From Trueperaceae bacterium (GTDB lineage Bacteria; Deinococcota; Deinococci; Deinococcales; Trueperaceae): 17,179 bases of DNA. The DNA lies in contig DASSXV010000006.1 in NCBI GenBank assembly GCA_035703635.1, positions 1 through 17,179 of the forward strand. The letters are read 5' to 3'. Positions 2,552 through 17,179 of the stretch are shown piece after piece. A model generated the notes under the pieces. It did not search any database and was not told the origin of the DNA. It was given only the letters and a program-made list of their open reading frames with translations. Numbering within the stretch: position 1 is the stretch's first letter; each line of letters opens with the position of its first letter. A program made the position numbers and the translations under genes.

Positions 2552-2587
2552 CTTATAACCGATGCATAACCACGCGCCCTCTACATT
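2552..2587 (+). promoter_or_regulatory. 11-bp-period direct repeat (TATAAC 2554-2559, CATAAC 2565-2570) followed by candidate -10 TACATT (2582-2587), upstream of the protease
   Basis: Sequence CTTATAACCGATGCATAACCA. The same motif recurs at 14426-14446 (minus). The repeats occupy the -35 region, which is SARP/OmpR-type activator geometry. Confidence 0.6.
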
Positions 2588-2674
2588 CCTTTGCGAGGGC
2601 GGCCCAGGCCGCCAGCCGAGCTGGCGCTCCACCCGCTGCGGCGGAGGGACCAGCAGACCACGAAGGAGGCGCAC

Positions 2675-5332
2675 ATGCGCACCAAGGTGAGAACGGTAGC
2701 GCTTACGCTACTCACGCTGTTACTACTGAGCGTCCTCGGCGCTTGCGGGCAACCGGCGGGCCCCGGCGACCTGTTCGTCGAGGAGAACGCCTGGACAACG
2801 AGCGTGCCAGTGGACGCCACCATGATCGGGGCGGACGAGTTCCGGCGCATGGTCGGCGCTGGGCAGCTCACGCTTAGAAGCACGGCGGACGTGGACGACC
2901 AGGTGGCCTCGCGCGCCGCCGACTTCTCCTCCAACCGCGCGCTGCTAGCTGGCCTGACCAACCCGAGCGCCAACGTTACCGACCTCCTCGCGGCAACTGC
3001 GGACGCTTCCGCTTACAGTGGCGACGTGCGCATCGCCGTTGGCGGCGCCACCGTGAGGTTGGAGGGGCTGGGCACGAGCCTGGCGAACGCCGCAGCCAGT
3101 GCCCAGTTGGCGACCAGCGCCGCCAACGCACTCAGCGCCTACCAGCTCTCGTACGACCTCGTCCCGGCGGACTTGCGCGCGCAGTTGCCGACCCCAGCTA
3201 GCCTGCAGGGTGCGGCCATCGGCGCCATCGATGCGGCCCTCGACCAGCTGAACACGCTTCTCGAGACGGTAGACAACCTCGACCTAACGCACGTCGAGGC
3301 GGTTCCGGTAGCGCCCGGCTACGTTGGCCTCGAGCCGCAGTCGGCGGGCGCAGGGCTCGACACCGACGCGGCGTGCGCGGGGCCGAGCAACTTCGCTTCC
3401 CGACTCTGGTTCCCACTCAAGTCGTTCATCTCGCCCATCAGAAACCAAGCGAACCGCGGCACCTGCTGGGCGTTCACCGCCATCGGCGCCATCGAGAGCC
3501 GCGAGCTGGTGCAGAACGGCCTAAGCGTCAACCTCTCCGAACAGTTCCTCGTGAACAAGGTCAAGGAGGACTGGGACTCCGAGGATTACTCCGAGGGCTA
3601 CAACGCGCGCGTGGCCTTGAACACGGCCGTCAGCAAGGGCCAGAGCCTTCCGAACGAGTCTAGCTGGACCTATAACGGCTCCCCTAACCGCGCCAGCACC
3701 AAGGACGGTTCGGCCGCCGACTTCGCCGGCGCGTGCAACCCATACGGCCAAGGGCCGAACGCGGGCTGGTGTTCAGAAACGGCCCACCAGAGCCCCACTT
3801 ACTGCACGACGTTCGTCTTCACCTTCTGCGGTTACAAGACCATCACCTTTAGCGGCGCTGGCGTGCCGGCTAGCAAGGCCGTGCAGGTCTGGAGCAGCGG
3901 CCAAGCTTTCAACCTCGCTAACTATCGCAACCTCCTCGCCCAGGGCCACGTGCTCCTCGCGAGCTTCCCCGTCTACGAGGGCTTCATGACCGCGGCGGGC
4001 GGCGTCGTGACCGACTACTCCAAGCAGTACAGGAACGGCGAGGGCGCCCTAGTTGACGGAAGTTACGGCGGCCACGCGGTGCAGATCGTGGCGTTCTTGA
4101 GCAACGAGCAGCTCTCGACACCGTCTTACACCTACAACATCGGAGGCGGCGGCTACTTCCTGGTCAAGAACTCGTGGGGTTGCGGCAGCGGCGACGGCGG
4201 TTACTGGTACGTGCCTGCCGACTACGTGCGGACGCGCTTCAACAGCCTCGACGTCATGCAGTTCGATACGCGCCGCAGTTCGAGGTGGACGGGCGAGCAG
4301 GCCAACCCTGGCAGCACCGAGGCGCCGGCCGTCAGCATCAAGATCCCCAGCACCACCATCGACCTGAGGGTACCGAAGGACCTGGCTTTCTCCTTCGGCG
4401 TTTCGCACTCGGTGGCCGCCTCGGTCAACTTGGTGGTCAGTTCCTCGGTGGATGGCACCCTCTACAGCGGCGCCTGGAACACCGCTCCCTACTCGTTCCC
4501 TGCCAGCCTCGTGCGCACCTTCACTTCCGTCGGCCAGCGCACCATCACGGTCAAGGCAACGTACGCAGGTAATGTCACTCAGCGCACTTTCACTGCCAAC
4601 GTCGTCAACTCGGCGCCAACCATCGCTTTCTCGGGCGGACCAACGGCCTACCAGGGCGAGGCCTACGCGCTGACAGCCAACGTGCAGGACATCAACGACG
4701 CGGGCACGACGGGACTATGCAGCAGGATGACCTGGACGGTAACGGCGCCGGATACGCTTACGCCAACCAGTGGCTGCCAAGTAGCCGTCACGTTCGGCAC
4801 GCAGGGCGCCCGCACCGTCACTGCCACCACCACAGATGCCGACGGCCTGCGCACGACCCGCAGCACCACCCTCAACGTGCAGCCGCCCCCGCCCAATCCC
4901 TACCCACGAGTGACCGCTTTCGGCATGCAGGCCCGCGAGTTCAGGGACCTGGGCGGCGGCGCCTACTTCTGCCTGAACACCTCGGTAGCCTTGGGGGCGA
5001 CCATCCGCCTCATGGACAACGGGTGCCGCTTCGTCGGGGAGACGACGGATTCGCGCAGGCACTCGGCTTACGTGACCGTCGAGAACCCAGACAACGAGAC
5101 GCTTGCCTACGACTGGCGCCTGTACGTCTACTACCAGGGCGCGTACCACCCGATCTCGTCCACCATCGGCTCGAGTAGCAGCGATTGGGTGCCCGGCATG
5201 CCTGGCAACACGGGCGAGGCCACCGACCCGTGTTACGTGAGCGTGACCGTGAGGGCGCCCGAGGCGGCGCGCAACAAGTCACTGACCGTCTGGACTGGGT
5301 CATGCACGTACTACGCCATCAGACTCAACTAG
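2675..5332 (+). CDS. Lipoprotein C1 (papain-family) cysteine protease with N-terminal pro-region and C-terminal Ig/PKD-like domains, ~885 aa
   Basis: Start reassigned from 2591 to ATG 2675, which has an AAGGAGG SD at 2663-2669 and is followed by a signal peptide with lipobox LGA-C24. Catalytic motifs: IRNQ258ANRGTC264WAF, LSEQ, GGH467AVQIV, FLVKN499SWG..GDGGYW. Thr/Val-rich beta repeats 'TFTSVGQRTITVKAT' and 'TFGTQGARTVTATTT' follow. Confidence 0.9.
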   Translation: MRTKVRTVALTLLTLLLLSVLGACGQPAGPGDLFVEENAWTTSVPVDATMIGADEFRRMVGAGQLTLRSTADVDDQVASRAADFSSNRALLAGLTNPSANVTDLLAATADASAYSGDVRIAVGGATVRLEGLGTSLANAAASAQLATSAANALSAYQLSYDLVPADLRAQLPTPASLQGAAIGAIDAALDQLNTLLETVDNLDLTHVEAVPVAPGYVGLEPQSAGAGLDTDAACAGPSNFASRLWFPLKSFISPIRNQANRGTCWAFTAIGAIESRELVQNGLSVNLSEQFLVNKVKEDWDSEDYSEGYNARVALNTAVSKGQSLPNESSWTYNGSPNRASTKDGSAADFAGACNPYGQGPNAGWCSETAHQSPTYCTTFVFTFCGYKTITFSGAGVPASKAVQVWSSGQAFNLANYRNLLAQGHVLLASFPVYEGFMTAAGGVVTDYSKQYRNGEGALVDGSYGGHAVQIVAFLSNEQLSTPSYTYNIGGGGYFLVKNSWGCGSGDGGYWYVPADYVRTRFNSLDVMQFDTRRSSRWTGEQANPGSTEAPAVSIKIPSTTIDLRVPKDLAFSFGVSHSVAASVNLVVSSSVDGTLYSGAWNTAPYSFPASLVRTFTSVGQRTITVKATYAGNVTQRTFTANVVNSAPTIAFSGGPTAYQGEAYALTANVQDINDAGTTGLCSRMTWTVTAPDTLTPTSGCQVAVTFGTQGARTVTATTTDADGLRTTRSTTLNVQPPPPNPYPRVTAFGMQAREFRDLGGGAYFCLNTSVALGATIRLMDNGCRFVGETTDSRRHSAYVTVENPDNETLAYDWRLYVYYQGAYHPISSTIGSSSSDWVPGMPGNTGEATDPCYVSVTVRAPEAARNKSLTVWTGSCTYYAIRLN

Positions 5333-5353
5333 TCTGAGGATCACCTCTCGTTC

Positions 5354-5362
5354 TGTTATGCT
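5354..5362 (+). promoter_or_regulatory. Candidate extended -10 promoter (TG-t-TATGCT) for the ABC-F gene
   Basis: TGTTATGCT matches TGnTAnnnT in the 161-nt intergenic region. It would give a leader of about 125 nt. Confidence 0.45.
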
Positions 5363-5428
5363 CCTAGGCGCCCGCGCCGGATAACCAGCGCCGGTCCCTC
5401 ACCCCATTGCGGAAGGCCTACCCTGATA

Positions 5429-5446
5429 ATGCGCAACGCACACTGA
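5429..5446 (+). CDS. Putative regulatory leader peptide (uORF) MRNAH
   Basis: ATG CGC AAC GCA CAC TGA, with purine-rich GGAAGG at 5411-5416 (spacing 12 nt, somewhat long). It sits in the leader of an ARE-like ABC-F gene. Confidence 0.35.
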   Translation: MRNAH

Positions 5447-5493
5447 AGACGAGAACCCCACCGGTACTTCGTTCACTCCGTTAGGAGATCAGT

Positions 5494-7083
5494 GTGAGTT
5501 TGCAGTTAAGGGCCGTAGCTAAACGCTACGGCGATACCACCGTTTTTTCCGATGTCAACTTGAAAGTGGGCCGCGGCCAGAAGGTCGCGCTCATCGGGCC
5601 TAACGGGAGCGGTAAGACGACGCTCCTACGCATAGCGGCAGAGGTTCTCGCGCCCGACTTCGGCAGCGTCACGGCAGAGGGACGCGTCGCCTACCTCGAG
5701 CAATCCGCCACCGCGGGTGAGGACGGCCTGCTAGCTGCGCTTACCCCCCCGGAGTTGCAGTCCGCGACGACAGAGCTGACCGCGGCGCAGGCCGCCCTCG
5801 AAGACCCGAGCGCGGCGGCCCTCGACCGCCATGCCGAGGCCGAGGAGCGCTTCCGCATGCTCGGCGGTTACGACTTCGCGGCGCGCGTCGAGGCCGTGCT
5901 CGCGGGCATTGGCCTGAGCGCAACTGGGCGGGTGAACGAGCTATCTGGCGGCCAGGCGCGGCGCTTGGGCCTGGCAAGGCAACTCTTGGCGCCAGCCGAC
6001 GTCTACCTCCTCGACGAGCCAACCAACCACCTAGACGCCGCCGGGCTTACCTGGTTGGAGGAGTGGGTGCGCGCAAGCAAGGCCACTATGTTGATCGTCT
6101 CTCACGACCGCGACTTCCTAGATGCCACCGTTAGCGCGGTCGCCGAGTTGGAGCGCGGCGGCATGACGGTGTGGCCGGGCACGTACACGGAGGCCATGAG
6201 CGCGAAGGCGGCCGAGTCGGCCAACCAACTGAGGCTGTACGAGGCGCAGGTCCGCACCAAGAAGCGCCTCGAGGAGGAGGCGGCAAGGCTCGCCTCGCAG
6301 AGCCGCAGCGCGGACAAGTTCAACCACAAGCGGGCGGGCAACCAGGCACTCATCCTGGCCAAAGCGAAGTCCGAGAACGTGGCGCGCACCCTGGCGCGGC
6401 GCGCTAAGGCGCTCGAGGCGCGCAGCGACAAGCTGGAGGTGGTGGCCAAGCCGTTCGAGGACGGCGCGCTTCCCACCATCCCGCTACCCGAGGTGCCGCT
6501 GGGCCCCACGGACGTCGTGCGCCTCAGCGACGTCAGCGTCATGCGGGGCGGGCACACGCTCGTGAGCGGCCTCGACCTGCTGTTAAGGCGCGGTGAAAAG
6601 CTAGCCATCACCGGACCCAACGGCAGTGGCAAGAGCAGCTTGTTGAAGACCGTGTTGGGCGAGTTGGCACCCGCGGCAGGCACGGTGACGTTGGGGGTCG
6701 ACACCCCGTTCGTCCTCACCCAGGACGGCTCGGAGTTGAGTAGCTTCGTCAGCCTCGAGGACGCCGTGCGGGCGGCGCAGCCTTTGCTGCAACGTCAGGA
6801 CCTCCACCATCTGCTGGCGCGCCTTGGGCTACCCAACGACCCGAACGCGCCGCTCGCGACGCTGTCTGGCGGGCAGCGCACCCGCTTGGCGCTCGCGCGC
6901 CTGGCGGTCACGCGCGCCCCACTGCTGGTGTTGGACGAACCCACGAACCACCTCGACTTGAAGATGGTCGAGGCGCTCGAACGGTTGCTGGTCGAGTACC
7001 GGGGAGCCGTGCTACTCGTCTCGCACGACAGGCGGCTGGTCAAAGCCGTTGCCGGTCGGGTAATGAGGTTAGGCGGGTCTTGA
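5494..7083 (+). CDS. ABC-F family ATPase (ribosome-associated; possible antibiotic-resistance/ribosomal protection type), 529 aa
   Basis: Two NBDs (GPNGSGKTT / LSGGQ / LLDEPTNHLD / SHDR and GPNGSGKSS / LSGGQ / VLDEPTNHLD / SHDR), no TM segments, a helical arm in NBD1 and a long charged helical linker. GTG start with AGGAG SD at 5483-5487. Confidence 0.93.
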   Translation: MSLQLRAVAKRYGDTTVFSDVNLKVGRGQKVALIGPNGSGKTTLLRIAAEVLAPDFGSVTAEGRVAYLEQSATAGEDGLLAALTPPELQSATTELTAAQAALEDPSAAALDRHAEAEERFRMLGGYDFAARVEAVLAGIGLSATGRVNELSGGQARRLGLARQLLAPADVYLLDEPTNHLDAAGLTWLEEWVRASKATMLIVSHDRDFLDATVSAVAELERGGMTVWPGTYTEAMSAKAAESANQLRLYEAQVRTKKRLEEEAARLASQSRSADKFNHKRAGNQALILAKAKSENVARTLARRAKALEARSDKLEVVAKPFEDGALPTIPLPEVPLGPTDVVRLSDVSVMRGGHTLVSGLDLLLRRGEKLAITGPNGSGKSSLLKTVLGELAPAAGTVTLGVDTPFVLTQDGSELSSFVSLEDAVRAAQPLLQRQDLHHLLARLGLPNDPNAPLATLSGGQRTRLALARLAVTRAPLLVLDEPTNHLDLKMVEALERLLVEYRGAVLLVSHDRRLVKAVAGRVMRLGGS

Positions 7084-7108
7084 CACTTCGCGCAGCGGCG
7101 TGCAATCT
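7080..7108 (+). promoter_or_regulatory. Candidate sigma70-type promoter for the iron-uptake operon
   Basis: Perfect -35 TTGACA at 7080-7085 overlaps the ABC-F stop codon. The -10 is imperfect (CAATCT at 17-nt spacing, or TGCAAT at 15). Confidence 0.55.
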
Positions 7109-7109
7109 T

Positions 7110-7138
7110 CTAATCCTGAGTGCTTCACTCAGGATTAG
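7110..7138. promoter_or_regulatory. Perfect 13-bp inverted repeat, probable repressor operator (Rrf2/IscR/RirA-like)
   Basis: CTAATCCTGAGTG-CTT-CACTCAGGATTAG is AT-richer than its surroundings, lies over the predicted transcription start and contains TGA-N9-TCA. No U-tract follows, so a terminator role is less likely. Confidence 0.7.
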
Positions 7139-7230
7139 CCACTGCACCGATGCTAGAACTTCAGCCCAAGCGGGCGAGTCCAAGATAACCCACGCGCAAC
7201 CGGCCTGGCCGGGAGCGCAAGGAGGATGTC

Positions 7231-8136
7231 ATGAGCAACACCCTAAGGCGGCTGTTCGCCGCCACCATCACGGCCGCGGTCATCGGGCTTGCCTCCGCGC
7301 AGACAGTCACCGTACAGACCGCGCGTGGCGAAGCGACGGTGCCAACCAACCCAACGAAGGTCTTCGCGTACGACTACGGCACCATCGATACCCTCCATGC
7401 GCTTGGCGTCACGGTTGACGGCGCCCCGCCGATCAACGGACGCGCGCCCGCGTGGGCGCCGACCAATGCCATCGCCATCGGTTCTCTCTTCGAGCCTGAC
7501 TACGAGGTAGTGAACGCCGAGCAACCCGACCTCGTGGTCGTGGCAGGCCGCTCCGCTCCGGCTTTCGACGAGCTCGCGAAACTCGCGCCAACCATCGACC
7601 TCACCTCCTCCGGCGACCTGGTGGCGGACCTCAAGCGCAACGTCACCACCCTGGCAGCCATCTTCGGCAAGGAAGCCGAAGGCGAGGCCGCGCTGGCCGA
7701 CCTGGACGCCAAGATCGCGGCCGTACGCGCGTCGCTCTCCAACGTCAGCAACGGCATGTTGCTCATGGTCACCGGCGGCAGCCTCACCATCGTGGCGCCA
7801 GATAACGCCCGCGCCGCGCTCCTCTACGGCGTCCTCGGGGTAACCCCGACCGTCGACGACGTGCAGTCCGCCACCCACGGCGAGCCGATCAGCTTCGAGT
7901 TCCTCCTGCAGCACGACCCGCAGTGGCTGTACGTGATCGACCGCGACGCCGCCATCGGCACCGAAGGCGCGCAGCCCGCCGCCGCCGTTCTCGACAACGA
8001 GCTCATGCACCGCACGACGGCCTGGAAGGCGGGGCAGGTCGTGTACCTCGACCCGTTCGACTGGTACATCGTCTCGGGCACCGGCATCGGCTCCCTCAAC
8101 GCCATGCTCGACGAGCTCGCCGCCGCGCTGCCGTAA
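7231..8136 (+). CDS. Iron-siderophore ABC transporter substrate-binding protein (FatB/YclQ/CeuE-like), 301 aa
   Basis: Motifs IGSLFEPDYE...PDLVVVAGRS, THGEPISFEF, LYVIDRDAAIG and YLDP..WY. Sec signal ending ASA-Q with no lipobox Cys. AAGGAGG SD upstream. Confidence 0.93.
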   Translation: MSNTLRRLFAATITAAVIGLASAQTVTVQTARGEATVPTNPTKVFAYDYGTIDTLHALGVTVDGAPPINGRAPAWAPTNAIAIGSLFEPDYEVVNAEQPDLVVVAGRSAPAFDELAKLAPTIDLTSSGDLVADLKRNVTTLAAIFGKEAEGEAALADLDAKIAAVRASLSNVSNGMLLMVTGGSLTIVAPDNARAALLYGVLGVTPTVDDVQSATHGEPISFEFLLQHDPQWLYVIDRDAAIGTEGAQPAAAVLDNELMHRTTAWKAGQVVYLDPFDWYIVSGTGIGSLNAMLDELAAALP

Positions 8137-8142
8137 GCCTGC

Positions 8143-9132
8143 GTGTCGTTAGGTGAGGCGAGACATCACGGCTTGCTACTCGCCGGCGGCGCCCTGGTGG
8201 TGCTGGCGTTAGCCGTCCTGAGCCTCACGGTGGGGGTCTTCGACCTCTCCTGGCGCGGGATCTTCGAGGGCGGCGAGAACCGCACCGACGCGCTGGTGCT
8301 CCTCGCCAGCCGCGTGCCTCGCACCATCGCCGTGCTACTGGTAGGCGCCTCCATGGGGGTCGCTGGCCTACTCATGCAACTCCTGTCCCGCAACCGCTTC
8401 GTTGCGCCCTCCACGGCAGGCACGGTCGAGTCGGCCAGCCTCGGCATCCTCGTCGCCATGCTGCTCGCGCCTGCCGCGCCCATCATGGTCAAGATGCTCA
8501 TCTCGGCGGCGTTCGCCCTGGCGGGCACCGCGCTCCTCATGGCCATCGTCAGCCGCACGCCGCTCAGGTCGCCGCTCGTGGTGCCGCTGATCGGGCTCAT
8601 GCTCGGCGGCGTCATCGGTGCAGCCACCACCTTCATCGCCTACCGCTTCGACCTCTTGCAGTCCCTCGCCAGCTGGACGACCGGCGACTTCTCGCGCGTC
8701 CTGCGCGGCCGCTACGAGCTCCTGTGGGTGGCGGGCGGCCTGACGGCGCTTGCGTACTTCGCCGCCGACCGCTTCACGGTGGCAGGCATGGGCGAGTCGT
8801 TCACCAAGAACTTGGGCCTCAACTACCGCCGCGTGATGGCTCTTGGCCTCGTCATCGTGGCTTTGGTAACGGCCGTCAACGTCGTAACGGTAGGCGCGGT
8901 GCCGTTCATCGGCCTCGTAGTGCCGAACGTCGTCAGCCTGCTGGTAGGGGACAACGTCAGGCGCGCGGTGCCGTGGATCGCCATCTTCGGCGCTGGCTTC
9001 GTGCTCGCATGCGACCTCATCGGCCGCACCCTGCGCTACCCGTACGAGGTGCCGGTCGGCACGGTCATCGGCGTGGTCGGCGCGGCGCTCTTCCTCTTCC
9101 TCCTCTTCAGGCGGTCGGCTCGTGTCGGCTGA
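8143..9132 (+). CDS. Iron chelate ABC transporter permease, FecCD family (FatD/YclN/CeuB-like), ~329 aa
   Basis: SRVPRT, MQLLSRNRFVAPSTAGT, GDFS, LGLNY, IPFIGLVVPN-like (VPFIGLVVPN), CDLIGR..RYPYEVPVG motifs. The GTG start is uncertain. Confidence 0.93.
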   Translation: MSLGEARHHGLLLAGGALVVLALAVLSLTVGVFDLSWRGIFEGGENRTDALVLLASRVPRTIAVLLVGASMGVAGLLMQLLSRNRFVAPSTAGTVESASLGILVAMLLAPAAPIMVKMLISAAFALAGTALLMAIVSRTPLRSPLVVPLIGLMLGGVIGAATTFIAYRFDLLQSLASWTTGDFSRVLRGRYELLWVAGGLTALAYFAADRFTVAGMGESFTKNLGLNYRRVMALGLVIVALVTAVNVVTVGAVPFIGLVVPNVVSLLVGDNVRRAVPWIAIFGAGFVLACDLIGRTLRYPYEVPVGTVIGVVGAALFLFLLFRRSARVG

Positions 9133-10159
9133 AGCCACTCGCACCCGCCCGCAAGCGGGAGCAGGCGCGCTAGTCGGCCGCCGCCAGCTCGACCGCCGGC
9201 GCTGGGGTCGGTTCTCGCCAACCGCCGTGCTCGTCATACTCGGCTTGCTCGTGCTCGTCTCCATCTACCTCTTCATGACCTTGGGCGCGCGCGGTTCATG
9301 GGAGTTCATCCTCCAGTTCCGAGGCCGCAAGGTGATCGGCATGCTCCTCGTCGGCACCGCGATCGCCACCTCGACCGTCATGTTCCAAACGGTGACGAAC
9401 AACCGCATCCTCACCCCATCGATAATGGGGTTCGACGCGCTCTACGTCCTGCTCCAAACGTGCCTGGCGTTCTTCCTCGGCGCGGCAGGCCTCACCCAGC
9501 TAGACAGCCGCATGCTGTTCGCCGCGGAGACGATCGGCCTCATGATCTTCGCCGGCGCCCTCTACTACTGGCTGTTCGTAGTCGGGCACCGCAGCCTCCA
9601 CCTGCTCGTGCTGGCGGGCATCGTGCTTGGCGTCATGCTGCGGAGCTTCACCAGCCTGCTGCAACGCGTGATGGATCCGCTAACGTTCGCCGTCTTGCAG
9701 GACGCGACCTTCGCCAGCTTCAACACGTTCGACGCGCGGCTGCTGGCCCCAGCAGCGATCCTCGTGGGGCTGGCGCTCTTCGGCGCCTGGCGCCTCCGCT
9801 ACCAGCTGGACATCCTCGCCCTCGGCCGCGAGATGGCCATCGGGCTGGGGGTCGATTACCGCCGCACCGTCATCCAGGCGCTGCTGATCATCACGGCGCT
9901 CGTTGCCGTGTCGACGGCGCTCGTCGGTCCAGTCACGTTCTTCGGGTTGGTGGTGGCGAACCTCGCCTACGCCCTGGTGCGCTCGTACCGTCACCAGGTC
10001 ATCCTGCCAGCCGCCGCGCTCCTAGCCGCCGTCGTGCTCATCCTCGGGCAGACGGTGCTCGAGCGCATGCTCGGCCTGGGCACCAGCCTCTCGGTCATCG
10101 TCGAGTTCGTAGGAGGCCTACTCTTCATCTATCTCGTGTTAAGAGGTGTAGTCAGATGA
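9122..10159 (+). CDS. Iron chelate ABC transporter permease, FecCD family (FatC/YclO/CeuC-like), ~345 aa
   Basis: FQTVTNNRILTPSIMGFDALY, FASFN, LGRE.AIGLGVDY, STALVGP..FFGL.VANLAY and VEFVGG motifs. Overlaps the upstream stop; exact start uncertain. Confidence 0.93.
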   Translation: MSAEATRTRPQAGAGALVGRRQLDRRRWGRFSPTAVLVILGLLVLVSIYLFMTLGARGSWEFILQFRGRKVIGMLLVGTAIATSTVMFQTVTNNRILTPSIMGFDALYVLLQTCLAFFLGAAGLTQLDSRMLFAAETIGLMIFAGALYYWLFVVGHRSLHLLVLAGIVLGVMLRSFTSLLQRVMDPLTFAVLQDATFASFNTFDARLLAPAAILVGLALFGAWRLRYQLDILALGREMAIGLGVDYRRTVIQALLIITALVAVSTALVGPVTFFGLVVANLAYALVRSYRHQVILPAAALLAAVVLILGQTVLERMLGLGTSLSVIVEFVGGLLFIYLVLRGVVR

Positions 10160-10914
10160 TCACCGCACAGAACCTCACCAAACGTTATGGCAATACGGTC
10201 GTTCTCGACGAGGTGAGCGTCGAGATACCGCGCGGCGGCATCACGGCCATGATCGGCCCGAACGGCGCAGGCAAGTCGACCCTCCTGTCGCTGATCGGGC
10301 GCCTGCTCAAGCCGGACAGCGGCGTCGTGACGATAGACGGCGTGCCAACCACGGGCATGAAGCAAGCCGACTTCGCCAAGAAGGTCGCCATCCTCAAGCA
10401 GGACAACCACCTTGCCGTGCGCCTCACCGTCGAGGACCTAGTCACCTTCGGCCGCTACCCCCACTCGCACGGGCGGCCGACCATGGAAGACCGCAGGCAC
10501 GTCGAGAACGCCATCGAGTACCTCGAGCTTGGCGACCTGCGCAAGCGTTTCCTAGACGAACTCTCCGGCGGCCAGCGCCAACGCGCGTTCGTGGCCATGG
10601 TCTTGTGTCAAGGCACCGACTACGTGCTGCTGGACGAGCCCCTCGCAAGCCTGGACATGCGCCACGCCGTCGCCATGATGAAGCGCATGCGGGGCGTGGC
10701 TCAGGACCTAGGCAAGTCGGTCGTCATCGTGCTGCACGACATCAACTTCGCCGCGTCGTACGCGGACACCATCGTCGCGATGAAAGACGGGCGCATCATC
10801 CAGCACGCGGTCGTCGACGAGGTAATGACGCCGCACGCGCTGCGGGCCATCTACGACGTGGACGTCCACGTGCAGAACATCGGCGGCAAGCCCATCGGCG
10901 TGTACTACAGCTGA
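10156..10914 (+). CDS. Iron chelate ABC transporter ATP-binding protein (YclP/CeuD/FatE-like), 252 aa
   Basis: The true start is ATG 10156 (ATGA overlap with the permease stop, AGAGGT SD), not 9298. Motifs GPNGAGKST, FGRYPHS.GR, LSGGQRQRAF, LLDEP and LHDINFA. Confidence 0.94.
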   Translation: MITAQNLTKRYGNTVVLDEVSVEIPRGGITAMIGPNGAGKSTLLSLIGRLLKPDSGVVTIDGVPTTGMKQADFAKKVAILKQDNHLAVRLTVEDLVTFGRYPHSHGRPTMEDRRHVENAIEYLELGDLRKRFLDELSGGQRQRAFVAMVLCQGTDYVLLDEPLASLDMRHAVAMMKRMRGVAQDLGKSVVIVLHDINFAASYADTIVAMKDGRIIQHAVVDEVMTPHALRAIYDVDVHVQNIGGKPIGVYYS

Positions 10915-10948
10915 ACCCTCGCGCTTACGGTCAGGCATGGGTGCGCGC

Positions 10949-13900
10949 CTAGCGCCCACGCCGCAGCCCCGTGACAAGCGCTGCCGGGGTGGCGGGCAAC
11001 TCGACGCCGACTTCCTCGAAGCGCCGCCGCGCACGCTCGAGAGCAGCGCTGGCGCCGTGCCCGTCATCCTTGTGGAGGTGGGCGCGGACCTCAAGCGCCA
11101 CTAGCGCCTCGTCGTACGGCGCCGCCTCCTGTAGCCAGCGCGCCACGCGCGCGCAGGAGTCCGGGTGTTCGCTGGCGCTGGCTGACGCCAACTCCACGGC
11201 GCGGTCGGTGACGAGCGCAGCGAGCGCGCCAGCCTCAACTTCTGGTGCGTCTTGGAGGAACGGCCCGCGCCAGGCTAGCAGGGCCGCACCCTGCCCTGGC
11301 TCCGCCGTGGCGGCCAGGAACTCCTCGACATCGGACTTGACCGCCGCGCCAAGCGCGTAGCCCTCACCCGTGCGTGCCACGACCTGCTGCCCGTACTTGC
11401 GCCTGACCTGATACACGAGCTGTTTGAGGTCGCTGTGGGCGCCTGCGTCTTGGCGCTGCGGGTAGAGGGCGTCGCTAAGCCGCATGTCGCTCACTCCCGG
11501 CTCTCCAGCCAGGCGTGCGAGGAGAAGTAGCGCTAGCAGGCGCCTGCGCTGCTCGCCCTTCACTCCCTGCGGGGCGCCGGGTGGGCCGAGGCGCATCTCA
11601 CCGAGCACCTCGAGGCGGCGCTCAGCTTCGGTAACGTGGCCGACCGCGACTGGCGCCGCGGCTGACCGCGGGAAGGCCCGAGCTACCAAGATGCGGCCCA
11701 ACCCGAGGCCGTGCTCGTCGAACCACGCCAGCGCCTCGGTAGCCACGCGCGGGTTCTTCGTCACGCGGCCAAGGTCGATGGCGATCTTGTTGGCCTCCAG
11801 CTCTTGCCCGCCCTGCCTGGCGGCCGCCAACGCCCCCGCCAGCGCCTCGGCCGCCGCCTGGCGCGCGCCTTGGGCCTCCAACGTAAGTCCCGTCACCCAC
11901 TGCGTCCGGCAGTCGTCGGCGGGGGAGGCGCCAGCCGCCGCGCCGAGCGCTGCCATCTCATTCGCCTGCGCCTGGGCGGCCGCGGCGTTGCCGAGCCGAG
12001 CGTTGGCAGAAGCCGCGTCGAAGAGGATCTCGCGGACGAGGCGCGGAGCCCCAGCCTCGCGGGCGAGGAGCAACGCGCGTTCACCGAAGCTGACCGCCGT
12101 GACGTAGTCGCCTTTCGCGAGGTGCAGGGAGCTCGTCATGGCGATGGTGTTGATGAGGAAGCGCGACGGCCCGTAGAGCTCAAGCGTCTCGAGCGCCTCG
12201 ATGAGGAGGTCGTCGGCCTCCTCGAAGCGGCCCTGGTCTATGCGCAGCTCGGCGAGCGCGGCCTGCGCGAAGGCGTAGGAGCGCCCCTCGCTCCCAGACC
12301 TTCGCAGTGAGAGGCACTCCTCGAGGGCGTCGTTCATCTCTGCGTAACGCCCCAACTGCTTGAAGAACGCCGCCTGGTTGAGCCGCACCGTGCTGAGCGC
12401 GCGCAGGGAACCGAGCTCCTGCAGGTCATGCGCCGCCTCCGCGATGGTGGTGAGAGCGACGTTGTAATCGCCGCGGTGGAAGGCGGTTAGGGCCTTCACG
12501 GAGAGGAACTCGCAGCGCAACTGACGGCTGACCGTCGGGAGGCCGATGCCGCGGTCGAGGAGTTCAGTCGCCAACTCCATGCCGCCACTAGCCAACGCCG
12601 ATGCGGCAGCGGCGCGCAGCCAACTCGCGTTGCTCGCCGCCTGCAACTCCGGGTAGGCGTTCCAGAGCTCGAGGGCTTCGCCGTGGCGCCCGGCAGCGTT
12701 GTAGCTCGTGAGGAGCAGGCCGGCAACGGCGGCCTCGCTGGCACCTCGGCGTCGATACTCCTCCGCCAGCTCGCGCACCTCGTCAAGCTGCCCGGTGCCC
12801 GCCAGCGCGTGAGCGTAGCTCGTCACCATCTCCACGTCGGCCGTCGGTTCGGCAGCCGCCGTTCCTAGGAGGGCTAGTGCCGCGTCGAAGTCGACGTTCA
12901 CGAGCACCAAGCCCGCCTCGAACGCCAAGCGCGCCCGCTCCGCCCCCACCGCATGGCTGCTAGCTGCTGCGCGCAGGCGGGCGGCGGCCACCTTGTTCGG
13001 CGCCGCCGCGACCGCGGCCATCAGCAGCTCGAGCGCGTCCCCGCCCGTCAGTCCGGCGGCGTCGACGAACGGCGCCGCCGCGACCGGGTCGTGGCGCAAC
13101 GCAGCTAAGGCGCGCAGCGCCAACTCGCGGAGGCGCGGCGCACTCAGAGCGGCTCGCGCCACGTCGCGCACCAGTCCATGCGCGAAGTCGCCGCCGCGCA
13201 GCACCCCCTGGCGCACGAGCCGCTCGGACGCAGCGGCCAGCACCTCGGGGCTGACGTCCGCCACCACCGCCCACAAACCAGCGTCCAAGGGTCCGGCGGG
13301 TAGCACCGCGCGCGCCTCGATCAGCGCCGCCGCCCCCTCGCCCAAGGCCTTGGCGTTCGCAACCATGTGCTCGATGACCGCGCCAACACGCGGCGGCCGC
13401 AAGGCGGGCGCGGGTTCGCGCCAGTTCCAGCGGCGGCCGTCGCTCCACAAGTGCCCGGCGCGGCTCAACTGCCTCAAGTACTCGAGCGTGAATAGTGGGT
13501 TGCCTGCCGCGCGCGCGAAGATCCAGGCGCACGCTGGCGCGGGGAGTTGCCCGCCAGCCGTTGCCTCGAGCAGCGCGGTGGCGGACTCCTCGCCCAGAGG
13601 CTCGAGCCATACCTGGTCGAAGGTTGGAGGAGCCTCGTGCCTGCTACCCACCACGAGCACGACCCCACGAAGGCGCTTCACGCCGTCGGCTAGCTGAACG
13701 GCGAAGCTGCTCACGTCCGGTTGGGCGTCCTGAAAGTCGTCGAGGTGCAGCACGAACGGCGCCAGCTGCTTAAGCAGCGCGTTCACCGCGGCGACCAACG
13801 CCCCCGTCTCAACCTGCTGGGCGTCGGCTGCGGCGTCAAGGGTGCCTTGCGCCCAGGAAGCCAACTTGGGGGAGGCCGGTAGCGCCGCGACGATCTGCGC

Positions 13901-14077
13901 CAACGGCCACGTTGCCGAGCAACTCGCGGAACGGCACGCCAACTGCGCCAACGCTTGCGTAGCAAGCCACGACTTCCCGATGCCGGGCCCGCCGAGCAAC
14001 GCTAACGCCACGCCGGAACGACCGGCGATCGCCCCCCGCAACTTGTCGGTCAGCTCCACCAACCTGAGGTCCTGCAT
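10949..14077 (-). CDS. STAND-type AAA ATPase / TPR / C-terminal SARP-like (OmpR wHTH + BTAD) transcriptional regulator, ~1042 aa
   Basis: Walker A GGPGIGKS, Walker B FVLHLDD, GNPLF, FAHGLVR, and an Ala/Leu-rich TPR-like middle. The C-terminus 'RLEVLG...RRLLALLL...LSDALYP...LKQLVYQVRR...RTGEGYALG...SDVEEF...WRGPFL...APYDE' follows the SARP pattern. Start is ATG 14077 (GAGG just upstream) or GTG 14089. Confidence 0.85.
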   Translation of the reverse strand: MQDLRLVELTDKLRGAIAGRSGVALALLGGPGIGKSWLATQALAQLACRSASCSATWPLAQIVAALPASPKLASWAQGTLDAAADAQQVETGALVAAVNALLKQLAPFVLHLDDFQDAQPDVSSFAVQLADGVKRLRGVVLVVGSRHEAPPTFDQVWLEPLGEESATALLEATAGGQLPAPACAWIFARAAGNPLFTLEYLRQLSRAGHLWSDGRRWNWREPAPALRPPRVGAVIEHMVANAKALGEGAAALIEARAVLPAGPLDAGLWAVVADVSPEVLAAASERLVRQGVLRGGDFAHGLVRDVARAALSAPRLRELALRALAALRHDPVAAAPFVDAAGLTGGDALELLMAAVAAAPNKVAAARLRAAASSHAVGAERARLAFEAGLVLVNVDFDAALALLGTAAAEPTADVEMVTSYAHALAGTGQLDEVRELAEEYRRRGASEAAVAGLLLTSYNAAGRHGEALELWNAYPELQAASNASWLRAAAASALASGGMELATELLDRGIGLPTVSRQLRCEFLSVKALTAFHRGDYNVALTTIAEAAHDLQELGSLRALSTVRLNQAAFFKQLGRYAEMNDALEECLSLRRSGSEGRSYAFAQAALAELRIDQGRFEEADDLLIEALETLELYGPSRFLINTIAMTSSLHLAKGDYVTAVSFGERALLLAREAGAPRLVREILFDAASANARLGNAAAAQAQANEMAALGAAAGASPADDCRTQWVTGLTLEAQGARQAAAEALAGALAAARQGGQELEANKIAIDLGRVTKNPRVATEALAWFDEHGLGLGRILVARAFPRSAAAPVAVGHVTEAERRLEVLGEMRLGPPGAPQGVKGEQRRRLLALLLLARLAGEPGVSDMRLSDALYPQRQDAGAHSDLKQLVYQVRRKYGQQVVARTGEGYALGAAVKSDVEEFLAATAEPGQGAALLAWRGPFLQDAPEVEAGALAALVTDRAVELASASASEHPDSCARVARWLQEAAPYDEALVALEVRAHLHKDDGHGASAALERARRRFEEVGVELPATPAALVTGLRRGR

Positions 14078-14115
14078 GGGGCCTCGCACCCCCGGAAAAT
14101 GGCAACTCGCCAGCG

Positions 14116-14121
14116 ATTATA
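14116..14121 (-). promoter_or_regulatory. Consensus -10 element (TATAAT) for the STAND regulator gene
   Basis: The plus strand reads ATTATA, a perfect TATAAT on minus, in a GC-rich gap about 40 nt upstream of ATG 14077. No recognisable -35. Confidence 0.6.
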
Positions 14122-14156
14122 CGCAGGAGGCCAGCGGCAGCGAGGGAGCCGCCAAG

Positions 14157-14405
14157 CTACCCCTCCTCAGCAAGTTGGGCCCCGCAGTTCGCGCAGAACT
14201 CACCGAACGGCGCAAGGATCGCGGAACCGCAGCGCGGGCAGCCAGTGAGCATCCGCGCGCCGTCGTTAGGGCAGAAGTTCTCCCCCACCGTCGCGGGCGT
14301 AGCGCGCAGGCAGCACGGGCAGACGTGGTAAGAGACGGCAGGTGGTTCCTGCCCCGACGACGCACCCTTCACGGGCCCATCCGAGTGGTCCTGGCTGAGT
14401 GGCAT
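14157..14405 (-). CDS. Small double zinc ribbon (DZR-like) protein, 82 aa
   Basis: Four knuckles: CPCC, FCPNDG, CPRCG, FCANCG. No SD before ATG 14405, so possibly leaderless; the start could also lie further downstream. Confidence 0.82.
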   Translation of the reverse strand: MPLSQDHSDGPVKGASSGQEPPAVSYHVCPCCLRATPATVGENFCPNDGARMLTGCPRCGSAILAPFGEFCANCGAQLAEEG

Positions 14406-14425
14406 GCAGCATGTTCACCGGACGT

Positions 14426-14446
14426 TAGTTATAGGGCGGTTATAGG
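14426..14446 (-). promoter_or_regulatory. Perfect 8-bp direct repeat CCTATAAC x2 with 11-bp period upstream of the zinc-ribbon gene
   Basis: Plus-strand GTTATAGG at 14428-14435 and 14439-14446; the minus strand reads CCTATAACCGCCCTATAACTA. Confidence 0.7.
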
Positions 14447-14463
14447 ACGGTGCGACACCGTCT

Positions 14464-15315
14464 CTAGCGTTCCGCGTCACTGAGCACCCGACGCGCCTGT
14501 CGCATGACGGCTTCGTCGACCATCATCCCATTGACTCTGTTGGCCCCGCCAGCCGCACCCGCAGCGATGATTGCTTCGGCCCGCTCGACCTCTAGCTCGT
14601 TCGGCCGGAATCCACTATGCAGCGGCTCGATCTGACCCGGGTGAACCGCGAACTTGGCAGTAAACCCGCCTGCCCTTGCCCTTGCACTGGCTGCCCGCAC
14701 CAACTCCGAATCACCGAGTTGGATGGTGGGCGTATCGATACGGAGTGATACACCCGCACCTGCCGCTGCCAGGATGACGCGGGCGTTGGCCGCGTCCATT
14801 ACGGCCCGACGCGCGGAGTCAGAAGGTTCCCCGGGCACTTCGAAAGGCAGTCCAAGGTCGGCAGCGAGGTCTTCACCACCCACGGCAACGCCGCCTACCG
14901 AAGGGTGCGCCGTAAGGATCTCGAAGGCGTTTCTCAAACCTGCGGCCGACTCGATCAACGGCACAACTAGCGCGTGACCAAGCCCTAGCCGAGACAAGGC
15001 CTCTCCCACTTCCTCAACCTCGGCACCCGAGGCCACCTTTGGTAGGACTAGCGCGAAGAGTGCCGGGCCAAGGGCATCTAGATCTGCCGTGAAGTCGGAC
15101 GTGCCAACGGCGTTCGTACGCACGGCAACGGGCGTGGTCACGGAGGTGCTACGAGATAGCGCCAGCGCCACGCGCTTTCGGGCCTCCGGACGCTCGGCTT
15201 GCGTCAGTCCATCCTCAAGGTCGAGGACGGCAACGTCCGGCTTGGCAACACGCAGCTTCTCCATGAAGCGCTGCGCCGCACCGGGCACAAACAACCAGCT
15301 AACGAGCCGCGGCAT
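14464..15315 (-). CDS. CitE-like CoA-ester lyase (HpcH/HpaI aldolase-citrate lyase beta family), 283 aa
   Basis: LFVPG, LDLEDG, VRTN, LPKV, LIESAAG, GGEDLAADLG, GFTAKFAVHPGQ and GMMVDEA motifs. Starts 6 nt after the GGT-family stop. Confidence 0.9.
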   Translation of the reverse strand: MPRLVSWLFVPGAAQRFMEKLRVAKPDVAVLDLEDGLTQAERPEARKRVALALSRSTSVTTPVAVRTNAVGTSDFTADLDALGPALFALVLPKVASGAEVEEVGEALSRLGLGHALVVPLIESAAGLRNAFEILTAHPSVGGVAVGGEDLAADLGLPFEVPGEPSDSARRAVMDAANARVILAAAGAGVSLRIDTPTIQLGDSELVRAASARARAGGFTAKFAVHPGQIEPLHSGFRPNELEVERAEAIIAAGAAGGANRVNGMMVDEAVMRQARRVLSDAER

Positions 15316-15321
15316 TGGCTA

Positions 15322-16929
15322 CTACCTGGCGATCGCCACGGCACCGCCATCCTTGCGCGGGTCGGAAGCGCCCGCGTAACCGCTGGCAGTGCGGGCAGCG
15401 ATCTGCACTTTGGCGAACGTGCGCTCATAGTTCCTGAGCGACTGCTGCACGTTCATGCCGCGGCGCCGCAGCTCCTCGACGGTGCGTTGTGGCACGCGCA
15501 ACTCGCAGTAGACTGGGTCACCCTCGGAGTGGAAGCGCGGGGCGCTGACGGCCTCTACGGGGGTCATACCGAAGTCGATCATGTTGCTAATAGCCTGTGA
15601 GACGGCTGAAGAGATCGACCATCCTCCCGGTGCGCCGACTGCGGCCCACGGCTTTCCGTCCTTGAGGATCACGGATGGCGAGATGGCGCTGGCCCGCGCT
15701 TTGCCCGGCTCGTAAGAATTGGGTCTGCCAGGGATTGGATCCATCAAAGACACGCAGTTATTCCAAGTGAAGCCAGTGCCGGGAACGACGATGCCTGCGC
15801 AGGTTGTGAGGGTGTGCGTGATCGAGACGCAGTTGCCGTCCTCGTCAATGACCGAGATGTGCGTGGTGAAGCCGGGCTTGTTGAGCATCTTGCGGTCAGG
15901 TAGCTCGTGGCGCCTGATTGCATCGGCGACCTCGGCGGCGTACTCCTTGGACAACAGGTGGTGGACGGGAACGTCGGCGAATCGCGGGTCGGCCAAGTAT
16001 TTGCCGCGCGTCACACCAGCCCAGGCTAGGGCGGCCGCGACAATGTAACCGTGCTCCGGACCGTTGTGGTCGAGCTGGCTGAGGTCGAACTGCTCCAGTA
16101 CATTGAGTATCTGGAGCGTAAGCAAGCCGCCGCCGGGTACGGCTGAGCTGGCCACCTCGTGGCCGCGGTATGTGATCTTGAGCGGTGGCTCGACTACCGG
16201 TCGGTAGTTCGCCAGGTCCTCACGCGTAACGAACGCGTCATTGGCTTCGAAATCGGCCAGGATGCGCTCTGCCAGGCCGCCGGTATAGAAATCCCTAGCG
16301 CCGTTAGTGGCGATACGCTCGAGCGACTGCGCCTGGTCAGGGTTGCGGTAGAAGTGGCCCGTCTCGAGCATGTAGCCGTCGTCGCCATGGAAGAGGTCGC
16401 GGGCGGCCTTGTTGACAGCGTACTTGTCTTTGGGATGAGGTAGTTCTGGCAGCATGGGCAGCCGCACGTGCTCGGCCACGTACTCAGGGATTCGGAACCC
16501 GTCTCTTGAGACGGCTATGGATGGCGCCAGCAACTCCGCCCACGGCTTGGTCGCGTAGCGGCTATGGATCTCGCCGAAGCCTGCCACCGTGCCCGGCGTC
16601 ATTATCGAGGTGTAGCCGCGCAGGCTGCGGTGGTCGTCGAAGAGCGGGAAGCGCCATAGATCAGTGAAGCCCTTGACGTCGTCGACCCACATGTCAGGGC
16701 GCATCTTCGCGCCGATGCGTGCCCAGAAGCCGATGTGCTCGAACTTCCCGGTTTCCGCCTGGTAGACGGTGGCCGAACCCCAGCCCCCCAGACCACACAT
16801 GAACGGGTCGGTAACCATCTGCATGAAGCCTGCTGCAACTGCGGCGTCGAAGGCGTTTCCACCTTCCTCCATGATTCGTGCGCCGAGCTCGGCCGCCGCC
16901 GGTTGGGGTGCTGCAACGATGCCTTTCAC
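15322..16929 (-). CDS. Gamma-glutamyltransferase (Ntn-hydrolase, T3) family protein with divergent acyl-binding pocket, ~535 aa
   Basis: GGNAFDAAVA, CGLGGWG, TPGTVAG, FYTG, autoprocessing TTHISVID and GAPGG, APRFH and GASDPRKDG motifs. Start reassigned from 17007 to GTG 16929 (AAGGAGGT SD at 16939-16946). Confidence 0.9.
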   Translation of the reverse strand: MKGIVAAPQPAAAELGARIMEEGGNAFDAAVAAGFMQMVTDPFMCGLGGWGSATVYQAETGKFEHIGFWARIGAKMRPDMWVDDVKGFTDLWRFPLFDDHRSLRGYTSIMTPGTVAGFGEIHSRYATKPWAELLAPSIAVSRDGFRIPEYVAEHVRLPMLPELPHPKDKYAVNKAARDLFHGDDGYMLETGHFYRNPDQAQSLERIATNGARDFYTGGLAERILADFEANDAFVTREDLANYRPVVEPPLKITYRGHEVASSAVPGGGLLTLQILNVLEQFDLSQLDHNGPEHGYIVAAALAWAGVTRGKYLADPRFADVPVHHLLSKEYAAEVADAIRRHELPDRKMLNKPGFTTHISVIDEDGNCVSITHTLTTCAGIVVPGTGFTWNNCVSLMDPIPGRPNSYEPGKARASAISPSVILKDGKPWAAVGAPGGWSISSAVSQAISNMIDFGMTPVEAVSAPRFHSEGDPVYCELRVPQRTVEELRRRGMNVQQSLRNYERTFAKVQIAARTASGYAGASDPRKDGGAVAIAR

Positions 16930-16972
16930 TTGGGTATTACCTCCTTGGTTCGGTGCATGGCGCGGGCGCTGA

Positions 16973-17179
16973 TCACGCCACGACGCCAGCTTGGAAAAGC
17001 GCCTCAAGGTCTCGTTCGCCGAGGTCGGTCAGTTCCTTCAGGACCACAGCGGTGTGTTCACCTAGCCGCGGTCCGGGAGTTGCGGAACGCTGGCCAGCAG
17101 AAGTCTGTACGGGGCTAGCAACTTGGCGCACGGTCCCGAACTCTTTGTGCTTGAAGTCAACGATTAAGCCGAGCGCCTC
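16973..17179 (-). CDS. Partial (C-terminal end) family III CoA-transferase, CaiB/BaiF-like
   Basis: Not in the ORF track. The minus frame from the window edge reads EALGLIVDFKHKEFGTVRQVASPVQTSAGQRSATPGPRLGEHTAVVLKELTDLGERDLEALFQAGVVA*. The 'H..FG.VRQVASP...P.LGEHT..VL.E...L...GVV' pattern is the characteristic CaiB/BaiF C-terminus. Confidence 0.85.
   Translation of the reverse strand, partial: EALGLIVDFKHKEFGTVRQVASPVQTSAGQRSATPGPRLGEHTAVVLKELTDLGERDLEALFQAGVVA

Follow-up and report, generated by a model that had tools for sequence, protein, structure and literature searches.

Do two short direct-repeat boxes, one in front of a gene for a surface cysteine protease and the other in front of a gene for a small zinc-ribbon protein, act as operators for the large regulator encoded beside the second of them? 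The question is posed by a 17,179-nucleotide stretch of DNA from a Trueperaceae bacterium (NCBI GenBank assembly GCA_035703635.1, contig DASSXV010000006.1), which was analysed over its whole length and is called the window here; it is the entire contig C24 of the source genome, G000 (2,895,446 bases, 88 contigs, 66.4% G+C). A preliminary description of the window had linked the boxes to a regulator of the STAND-SARP type encoded within it. We find this interpretation supported, every check that could be computed having come out in its favour, and consider it probable that the boxes are operators of the neighbouring STAND-SARP regulator, which would work as a SARP-type class-II activator; binding and activation themselves are what we infer. 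The features on which the argument turns are the following.

2552-2572, + strand: box of the protease promoter, CTTATAACCGATGCATAACCA, a candidate operator at a predicted position of about -40 to -19, with the repeats TATAACC (2554-2560) and CATAACC (2565-2571) at an 11-bp period
2582-2587, + strand: -10-like hexamer TACATT (TANNNT), starting 11 nt after the second repeat of the protease box
2675-5332, + strand: lipoprotein with a Peptidase_C1 domain, 885 residues (the protease)
14446-14426, - strand: box of the DZR promoter, CCTATAACCGCCCTATAACTA, a candidate operator, with the repeats TATAACC (14444-14438) and TATAACT (14433-14427) at an 11-bp period
14416-14411, - strand: -10-like hexamer GAACAT (weak), starting at the same 11-nt distance from its second repeat, with the DZR ATG 5 nt downstream
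14157-14405, - strand: putative double zinc-ribbon protein (DZR), 82 residues
10949-14089, - strand: AAA_16/TPR protein (the regulator)

The sequences and coordinates of both boxes and their 11-bp period were exactly as the preliminary description had given them. Compared letter by letter, CTTATAACCGATGCATAACCA and CCTATAACCGCCCTATAACTA are identical at 15/21 positions, and within each box the two hexamers start 11 nt apart. The pattern YATAAC-N5-YATAAC, with up to one mismatch allowed, matched twice in the window against 0.01 matches expected, and two or more matches were reached in none of 200 shuffles. The scan of the genome for this pattern, which had been proposed as a check, returned these two sites alone, and its reversed control returned none. 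The pentamer ATAAC occurs 909 times on the two strands of the genome and forms six same-strand pairs within 40 nt; just two pairs have a spacing of 11, and both are the boxes. Scored with a weight matrix derived from 15 different sites in the genus (described below), the two boxes reach 29.4 and 29.1 bits and the next-best site of the genome 19.0 bits. The latter, on contig C40, was rejected, as it lies inside an apparently coding stretch and has no TANNNT at the right offset. We conclude that a chance origin of the box pair is excluded.

The genus sample comprised the 18 genomes of the collection used, the source genome among them. The pattern TATAACC-N4-YATAAC matched 19 times in seven of these genomes (G000, G008, G010, G013, G014, G015 and G016), and its reversed control matched in none of the 18; the seven are related to each other and are not independent trials. 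The DNA downstream of every match was inspected and the genes identified by Pfam or by similarity to the proteins of the window. All 19 matches fell in 18 promoters of three gene types: the DZR gene (six promoters: G000, G010, G015, G016 and, in identical sequence on two contigs, two in G013), the Peptidase_C1 lipoprotein gene (eight: G000, G008, G010, G013, G014, G015 and, before tandem paralogues, two in G016), and the gene of a secreted 226-residue protein without a Pfam or NCBIfam match (four: G008, G013, G015 and G016, boxes at L052, L054, L055 and L060). The G016 copy of the last (L052, G016:C125, about 3985-4030, - strand) carries three full repeats and a degenerate fourth in 11-bp steps. 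A homologue of this third target was not found in G000 by tblastn at E ≤ 1e-3. No NCBIfam model matched the regulator, the DZR protein or the protease either. Once aligned, the protease promoters average 56% identity per column, and of their 29 invariant columns 18 fall within the repeats and the -10; in the DZR promoters the invariant columns likewise cluster in the repeats and the -10, and the flanks have diverged. The conservation that had been asked of the motif was therefore found, the motif being kept upstream of the orthologous protease and DZR genes despite diverged flanking DNA.

The DZR promoter, the DZR gene and the start of the regulator gene stand twice, in identical sequence, in G013 (contigs C12 and C19; L056 and L058), and protease fragments are present on C12 and also on C20. 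This doubled locus is either a duplication or an assembly split.

A separate hexamer accompanies every box. The preliminary description had noted TACATT and GAACAT 11 nt past the second repeat in the window, and both are present there; across the genus, a hexamer stands at exactly this distance in 18/18 promoters, as TANNNT in 12 and as GA[AC]CAT in 6. The 12 protease and third-gene promoters use the forms TACATT, TAACGT, TAGGCT, TACCCT and TAACCT. All six DZR promoters have GAACAT or GACCAT, followed 5, 6 or 7 nt later by GCATG, which includes the DZR start codon. With the hexamer set at -12 to -7, two 11-bp units would span -40 to -19, these positions following from predicted starts. For the protease, transcription is predicted to start near 2594, giving a 5' untranslated region of about 80 nt with GGAGG ahead of the ATG; at a spacing of 17 nt the -35 position falls in the box and reads CCGATG. 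A consensus scan of the window found no sigma-70-type promoter at either box. The same kind of scan found no terminator in the spacer between the protease and ABC-F genes or in that between the DZR and regulator genes, and the RNA folding of these spacers is unremarkable (z = -1.41 and z = -0.33, respectively).

Because the hexamer stands 5-7 nt before the ATG, the DZR mRNA is predicted to be leaderless. Such an mRNA would fit the phylum by analogy: in Deinococcus deserti 60% of mRNAs are leaderless, 94% of transcription starts have a TATAAT-like -10 immediately before them, and a -35 motif of general occurrence was not found (PMC4007540). The regulator gene, which follows the DZR gene, probably has a basal, box-independent promoter of its own. 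A TATAAT at 14121-14116 (- strand) in the spacer between the two genes is the candidate; TATAAT has only 16 copies on both strands of the genome, and TATAAT or TATCAT lies within this spacer in 5/5 genomes (G000, G010, G013, G015 and G016). Therefore, the box would primarily control DZR, a relation reminiscent of AfsR and afsS.

A further part of the question is whether the regulator has a domain suited to such a site. Its parts are as follows.

10949-14089, - strand: whole regulator, 1046 residues from a GTG, or 1042 from an ATG at 14077
residues about 10-145: P-loop NTPase
residues about 400-780: helical/TPR sensor region
10952-11620, - strand, residues about 824-1046: C-terminal SARP module (OmpR-type winged helix and BTAD)

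The ATG at 14077 is the start that matches G010. The NTPase matches AAA_16 with 33.8 bits (cut-off 32.6); Walker A (GGPGIGKS) and Walker B (hhhhDD) are both invariant in 11 homologues, with residues G33, G36, I37, G38, K39 and D118 unchanged throughout. TPR_12 reaches 26.3 bits, below its cut-off of 30.1, and the matches of the TPR region include the STAND sensor PH0952. The protein thus has what defines a STAND protein, namely a sensor domain of repeat type behind a P-loop NTPase that carries both Walker motifs. At the C-terminus, a profile of 11 homologous C-termini (alignment A1) matched AfsR at 1.2e-10 and EmbR at 3e-6, in both cases across winged helix and BTAD. Residues 781-1046 were modelled with AlphaFold2 at a mean pLDDT of 87.6, and a Foldseek search of the PDB with this model gave EmbR and AfsR chains as the best six matches (probability 1.00, E 3.9e-9 to 6.6e-8), the next match following at E 0.064. 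By profile and by modelled fold, the C-terminus is a SARP module of winged helix and BTAD that Pfam misses; the wHTH-BTAD (winged helix-turn-helix and BTAD) ending that the preliminary description had given the regulator stands on these two grounds, but not by Pfam alone. BTAD is seen at E ≤ 0.1 in only 5/11 homologues.

The recognition helix carries the motif LKQLV[YH]QVR[RH]KYG, common to the five box-genome regulators aligned and different in six others. In a hidden Markov model alignment, T88 and R92, with which AfsR contacts bases, align with Q and Q in the box-bearing Truepera regulators, and the second of these positions is K, T, D or S in regulators from genomes without the box. These differences agree with a changed specificity, as far as so distant an alignment can be read. 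A homologue search returned 37 proteins at E ≤ 1e-3 among 8000 scored candidates. The best 34 have no BTAD or Trans_reg_C call in Pfam (0/34); most of those that are named are called hypothetical, TPR protein or AAA ATPase, and the named ones come from Deinococcus, Meiothermus and Thermaceae. Some homologues carry TPR_MalT (PF17874). Among named relatives, the one nearest to the regulator locus is a metagenome-assembled genome labelled Truepera radiovictrix (Deinococcota). A second regulator paralogue, 40-41% identical, was noted at G016:C126:2168-5194 and at G004:C106:3316-6084, where it is perhaps the only copy.

The nearest known counterpart is AfsR of Streptomyces coelicolor, a large SARP. 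According to PMC10936776, the afs box at afsS is 22 bp long, spans -40 to -19 and is made of a pair of 11-bp direct repeats; within each repeat, one AfsR protomer contacts the initial 8 bp. The Truepera box is alike in its two 11-bp direct repeats, at a predicted position of about -40 to -19, and its poor -35. The regulator shares with AfsR the SARP module, as judged by profile and fold, together with an NTPase and TPR, and in both cases a small-protein gene beside the regulator, afsS or DZR, is the target or candidate target. However, AfsR and large SARPs of the PolY type run SARP-NOD-TPR, with an NB-ARC/NOD domain in the centre, and the Truepera protein has the reverse order, NTPase-TPR-SARP; its NTPase is recognised by AAA_16 and gave no NB-ARC match at E ≤ 0.01. 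The half-site reads TATAACC, the other candidate target is a gene for a surface protease where AfsR acts on secondary metabolism, the SARP parts are about 20% identical in sequence, and the system belongs to Deinococcota whereas AfsR belongs to Actinomycetota. For small SARPs such as ActII-ORF4 and RedD, the same source gives a spacing rule published for actinomycete antibiotic clusters: the direct repeats stand 11 or 22 bp from each other, and 8 bp separate the 3' repeat from the -10. Their targets and the Truepera box share direct repeats that are spaced by one helical turn and keep a constant, short distance to the -10, but in the Truepera box the end of the 7-bp core is 10 nt ahead of the -10, and the regulator has large sensor domains. 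Overall, the layout of SARP targets, with 11-bp direct repeats over the -35 and a fixed distance to the -10, was found in 18/18 promoters of the seven genomes, at positions that are predicted.

Two other families bear on the architecture. LAL/MalT regulators follow the same plan as this one, from a P-loop NTPase at the N-terminus through a helical/TPR sensor to a domain for DNA binding at the C-terminus, but that domain is a LuxR-type helix-turn-helix in them and not a SARP wHTH-BTAD; the regulator has no GerE match at E ≤ 0.01. EmbR of Mycobacterium tuberculosis, which Foldseek ranks first for the C-terminal model (E 3.9e-9 over 254 aligned columns), differs in having its SARP module at the N-terminus and an FHA domain at the C-terminus, without NTPase or TPR.

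If the boxes are operators of a SARP-type activator, which regulator do they belong to? The remaining genes of the window, which serve as reference points for gene order, are these.

3-1802, + strand: COX1
1873-2439, - strand: DUF308
5494-7083, + strand: ABC-F ATPase
7231-10914, + strand: iron-type ABC uptake system (Peripla_BP_2, FecCD, ABC_tran)
14464-15315, - strand: HpcH-type aldolase
15322-17007, - strand: gamma-glutamyltranspeptidase

The association of box and genes that the preliminary description had put forward for checking was found across the genus. The protease is present in the same 7/18 genomes as the box, and a close homologue of the regulator (E < 1e-70) is present in six of the seven (G000, G010, G013, G014, G015 and G016); ten other genomes have neither box nor protease nor close regulator homologue. 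Adjacency, also proposed as a check, was found as well: G015 and G016 hold protease, DZR and regulator close together, with only the ABC-F gene between protease and regulator. In these two genomes the order is box, protease gene or genes and ABC-F in one direction, then regulator, DZR and box in the opposite one, and beyond this DZR promoter a divergent iron-uptake operon (L051, L053), which the box faces. In G000 the iron-type operon instead sits between the ABC-F and regulator genes, so that the module of regulator, DZR and box lies on its other side, after the aldolase gene; the box follows an aldolase gene in G010 too. Gene order indicates that a local rearrangement moved the module as one unit. 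Because the module has changed surroundings in relatives, the box is part of the DZR-regulator module, not of the genes around it. The box lies next to the regulator module in five genomes.

The genes between the two boxes had been taken as unrelated. They do indeed carry no box, but their being unrelated is not established, because relatives keep the ABC-F and iron genes in the same neighbourhood; ABC-F follows the protease in G000, G015 and G016. The ABC-F protein just reaches the NCBIfam equivalog 'ribosomal protection-like ABC-F' (382.8 bits against a cut-off of 380), and a GATAAT hexamer at 5424-5429 may be the promoter of its own gene. Of the three-part system of protease, DZR and regulator proposed for the window, the link among the three held, but the scheme needs amending in that relatives have a third target and that G014, a genome 97% complete with regulator, protease and a box at the protease, has no detectable DZR and a regulator preceded by a plain TATGAT promoter.

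By sequence, the protease is a papain-family (C1) cysteine protease and a lipoprotein. Peptidase_C1 reaches 51.2 bits (cut-off 20.7) over residues of about 246-516; the motifs QxxxGTCWAF, GHAV and KNSWG align with the catalytic Cys, His and Asn of falcipain-2, and the signal and the lipobox LGAC were taken from the translation.

The company of regulator and protease extends beyond the genus. Three genomes of another family, f5 (G028, G032 and G040), encode homologues of regulator and protease side by side, at 32-33% and 37-38% identity respectively, and the three protease promoters read TAACC-N6-AAAC[CT]-N10-CAATCT, with the same 11-bp period of AACC and the same distance to a NANNNT hexamer. 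These genomes are close to one another and AT-richer, and the likeness is suggestive only. No DZR was found within 1.5 kb of these loci at E ≤ 0.01, and no box was found at a protease paralogue on contig C13 of G028. In G035 (contig C48; L069, 4353-10000, + strand) a regulator of 44% identity is followed by a DZR gene and then by a gene for a lipoprotein of at least 698 residues. The latter matches Peptidase_C39_2 weakly (23.8 bits, cut-off 24); it would be a cysteine-peptidase-like lipoprotein of another kind, found together with regulator and DZR. Given the adjacency in G028, G032 and G040 and the order in G035, the link between regulator and surface cysteine protease would be older than the genus.

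Matches to the exact pattern outside the genus were rejected as mostly chance, since the genomes are lower in GC and the reversed controls match too; a TANNNT at the right offset was present at 4/17 sites inspected, and the site G028:C17 precedes a gene for a WD40-like secreted protein with no evident link. One site was set apart. G035:C4 (L027, about 1500-1517, - strand) has CATAACGCCGGTATAAC, then 11 nt and TACCTT, upstream of a 63-residue open reading frame without a Pfam match; it has the geometry of the Truepera box, in the genome with the 44%-identical regulator, and may be chance. Another genus of the same family is represented by G021, with ten exact-pattern sites (for example L029 and L045), nine of them beginning TATAAC; most read TATAACG[CG]T[GC]ATATAAC, several are identical, and they look like a repeated element or another regulon.

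Several observations weigh against assigning the boxes to this regulator. The Pfam BTAD model scores 16.4 bits on it (E 0.012), below the cut-off of 22.1, and Trans_reg_C does not match. Within the genus, G004 has a 41%-identical regulator homologue with neither box nor protease; its contig ends inside the regulator, and the upstream region is not covered. G008 has boxes and protease and no regulator that was found, an absence that is weak evidence because a contig end truncates the protease and genome completeness stands at 91%. In G022, which encodes regulator, DZR and protease, no box was found by eye, by an exact 7-mer search at period 11 or by a relaxed AACC search. The hexamer TATAAC is a 5/6 match to the TATAAT-like -10 of the Deinococcus type (PMC4007540). 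RNA evidence came from four RNA-library runs over the whole window, as assembled contigs of low depth in which starts, strands and levels are not readable and gaps in cover carry no meaning; one contig, X16 (13889-14511, 623 nt, 1 differing letter), runs through the start of the regulator gene, DZR, the box and the end of the aldolase gene, and could be read-through from upstream or DNA in the library. Finally, the geometry of the box fits OmpR/PhoB regulators equally well, so that the assignment to this regulator rests on co-occurrence and adjacency.

This last point leads to the alternative that survives best, that the box is a real activator site of some other winged-helix protein, for instance of the OmpR/PhoB family, and that the STAND-SARP protein has other targets. 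Direct repeats of 11-bp period that replace the -35 are common to OmpR/PhoB regulators, and pho-box promoters resemble the Truepera box in this respect; the boxes of G008 and the box of G014, which stands at the protease and not at the regulator, would fit such a protein. By contrast, the regulator has no receiver domain and places BTAD after its winged helix. We nevertheless regard the alternative as unlikely, since the box accompanies the regulator module and was moved along with it, since box, protease and regulator have one patchy distribution inside a single genus, and since regulator and protease are adjacent in another family; the gap in G008 counts for little for the reasons given above.

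Could the DZR protein itself bind the box, or be an obligatory co-factor, with the STAND protein as its partner only? The protein has a variable N-terminal tail and a conserved Cys-rich core; Pfam DZR scores 25.0 bits (cut-off 27.3), and Zn_ribbon_3 matches too. C29, C32, C45, C56, C59, C71 and C74 are invariant in eight homologues, the second ribbon being CxxC...CxxC and the first CxxC plus a single Cys followed by NDG. A DZR profile found a single copy beside the regulator in 5/5 genomes with a match (G010, G013, where the locus is doubled, G015, G016 and G022); across three families DZR adjoins the regulator in either gene order, and the box lies in its own promoter, all of which would suit such a role. 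A complex prediction for regulator residues 1-790 (A2) with DZR (A3) scored 0.00 and 0.01 against a mark of 0.32 and favours neither side. However, the same profile found no DZR in G014, G008, G004, G003 or G012 (0/5), with 5/5 positive controls scored, and G014 has regulator, protease and protease box; the f5 loci pair regulator and protease with no DZR in the range searched; and tandem repeats over the -35 region are the signature of a winged-helix activator, a domain that the regulator has. A box-binding DZR protein is thus very improbable.

Most unlikely, too, is that the TATAAC hexamers are -10 elements of tandem promoters and no operator at all: their likeness to TATAAT and the prevalence of such -10 elements in D. 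deserti speak for it, but the last base is C in 38/38 hexamers of the 19 sites and never the T that a -10 needs, a further C follows 17/19 downstream hexamers, the copies are always 11 bp apart and 11 nt upstream of a separate TANNNT or GA[AC]CAT in 18/18 promoters, and in the DZR promoters the 5-7 nt spacing to the ATG is that of this separate hexamer and not of TATAAC.

With the boxes as probable operators of the STAND-SARP regulator, the system could work as follows. Two C-terminal SARP modules would bind side by side on the TATAACC repeats, one helical turn apart, at about -40 to -19 in promoters with a usable -10 but lacking a -35, and the bound regulator would bring in RNA polymerase. 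Acting as a STAND-type switch, the P-loop NTPase and the TPR region ahead of the SARP module would gate activation on a signal. In G000 the regulon would have two members, the leaderless DZR mRNA, with possible read-through into the regulator gene, and the protease lipoprotein.

The review PMC10972967 treats SARPs as actinobacterial activators of antibiotic clusters, places the SARP domain at the N-terminus in all classes and states that large SARPs are found in actinobacteria only. In this protein the module is C-terminal, and its homologues occur in Deinococcus, Meiothermus and Thermaceae. A search of open-access papers and preprints for SARP in Deinococcota found no paper on an NTPase-TPR-SARP family; PMC3564903, a SARP-related work on Deinococcus, concerns a CheY-SARP response regulator. 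The SARP module, the STAND NTPase and class-II operators of tandem repeats are already known. The reversed architecture, the family in Deinococcota, the operator sequence and a regulon of exported proteins appear new.

It is possible, and we offer it tentatively, that a 'reverse' STAND-SARP family of Deinococcota, of about 1000 residues in the order NTPase-TPR-SARP and with a dedicated zinc-ribbon protein, serves as an NLR-like switch for surface cysteine proteases. Its operator grammar, AACC cores 11 bp apart and 10 nt before a NANNNT -10, would be conserved between families, and the leaderless zinc-ribbon gene would be either an AfsS-like first output or the feedback partner of the sensor. 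For the family, the absence of any BTAD or Trans_reg_C call among the 34 best homologues means that it is under-annotated, its DNA-binding module being missed by current domain libraries. For the organism, a compact operator that can be read from the sequence would define a regulon of two or three genes for exported proteins, and would offer a small, clean system, with a concrete operator to work with, for how an NLR-like ATPase switches a SARP dimer on.

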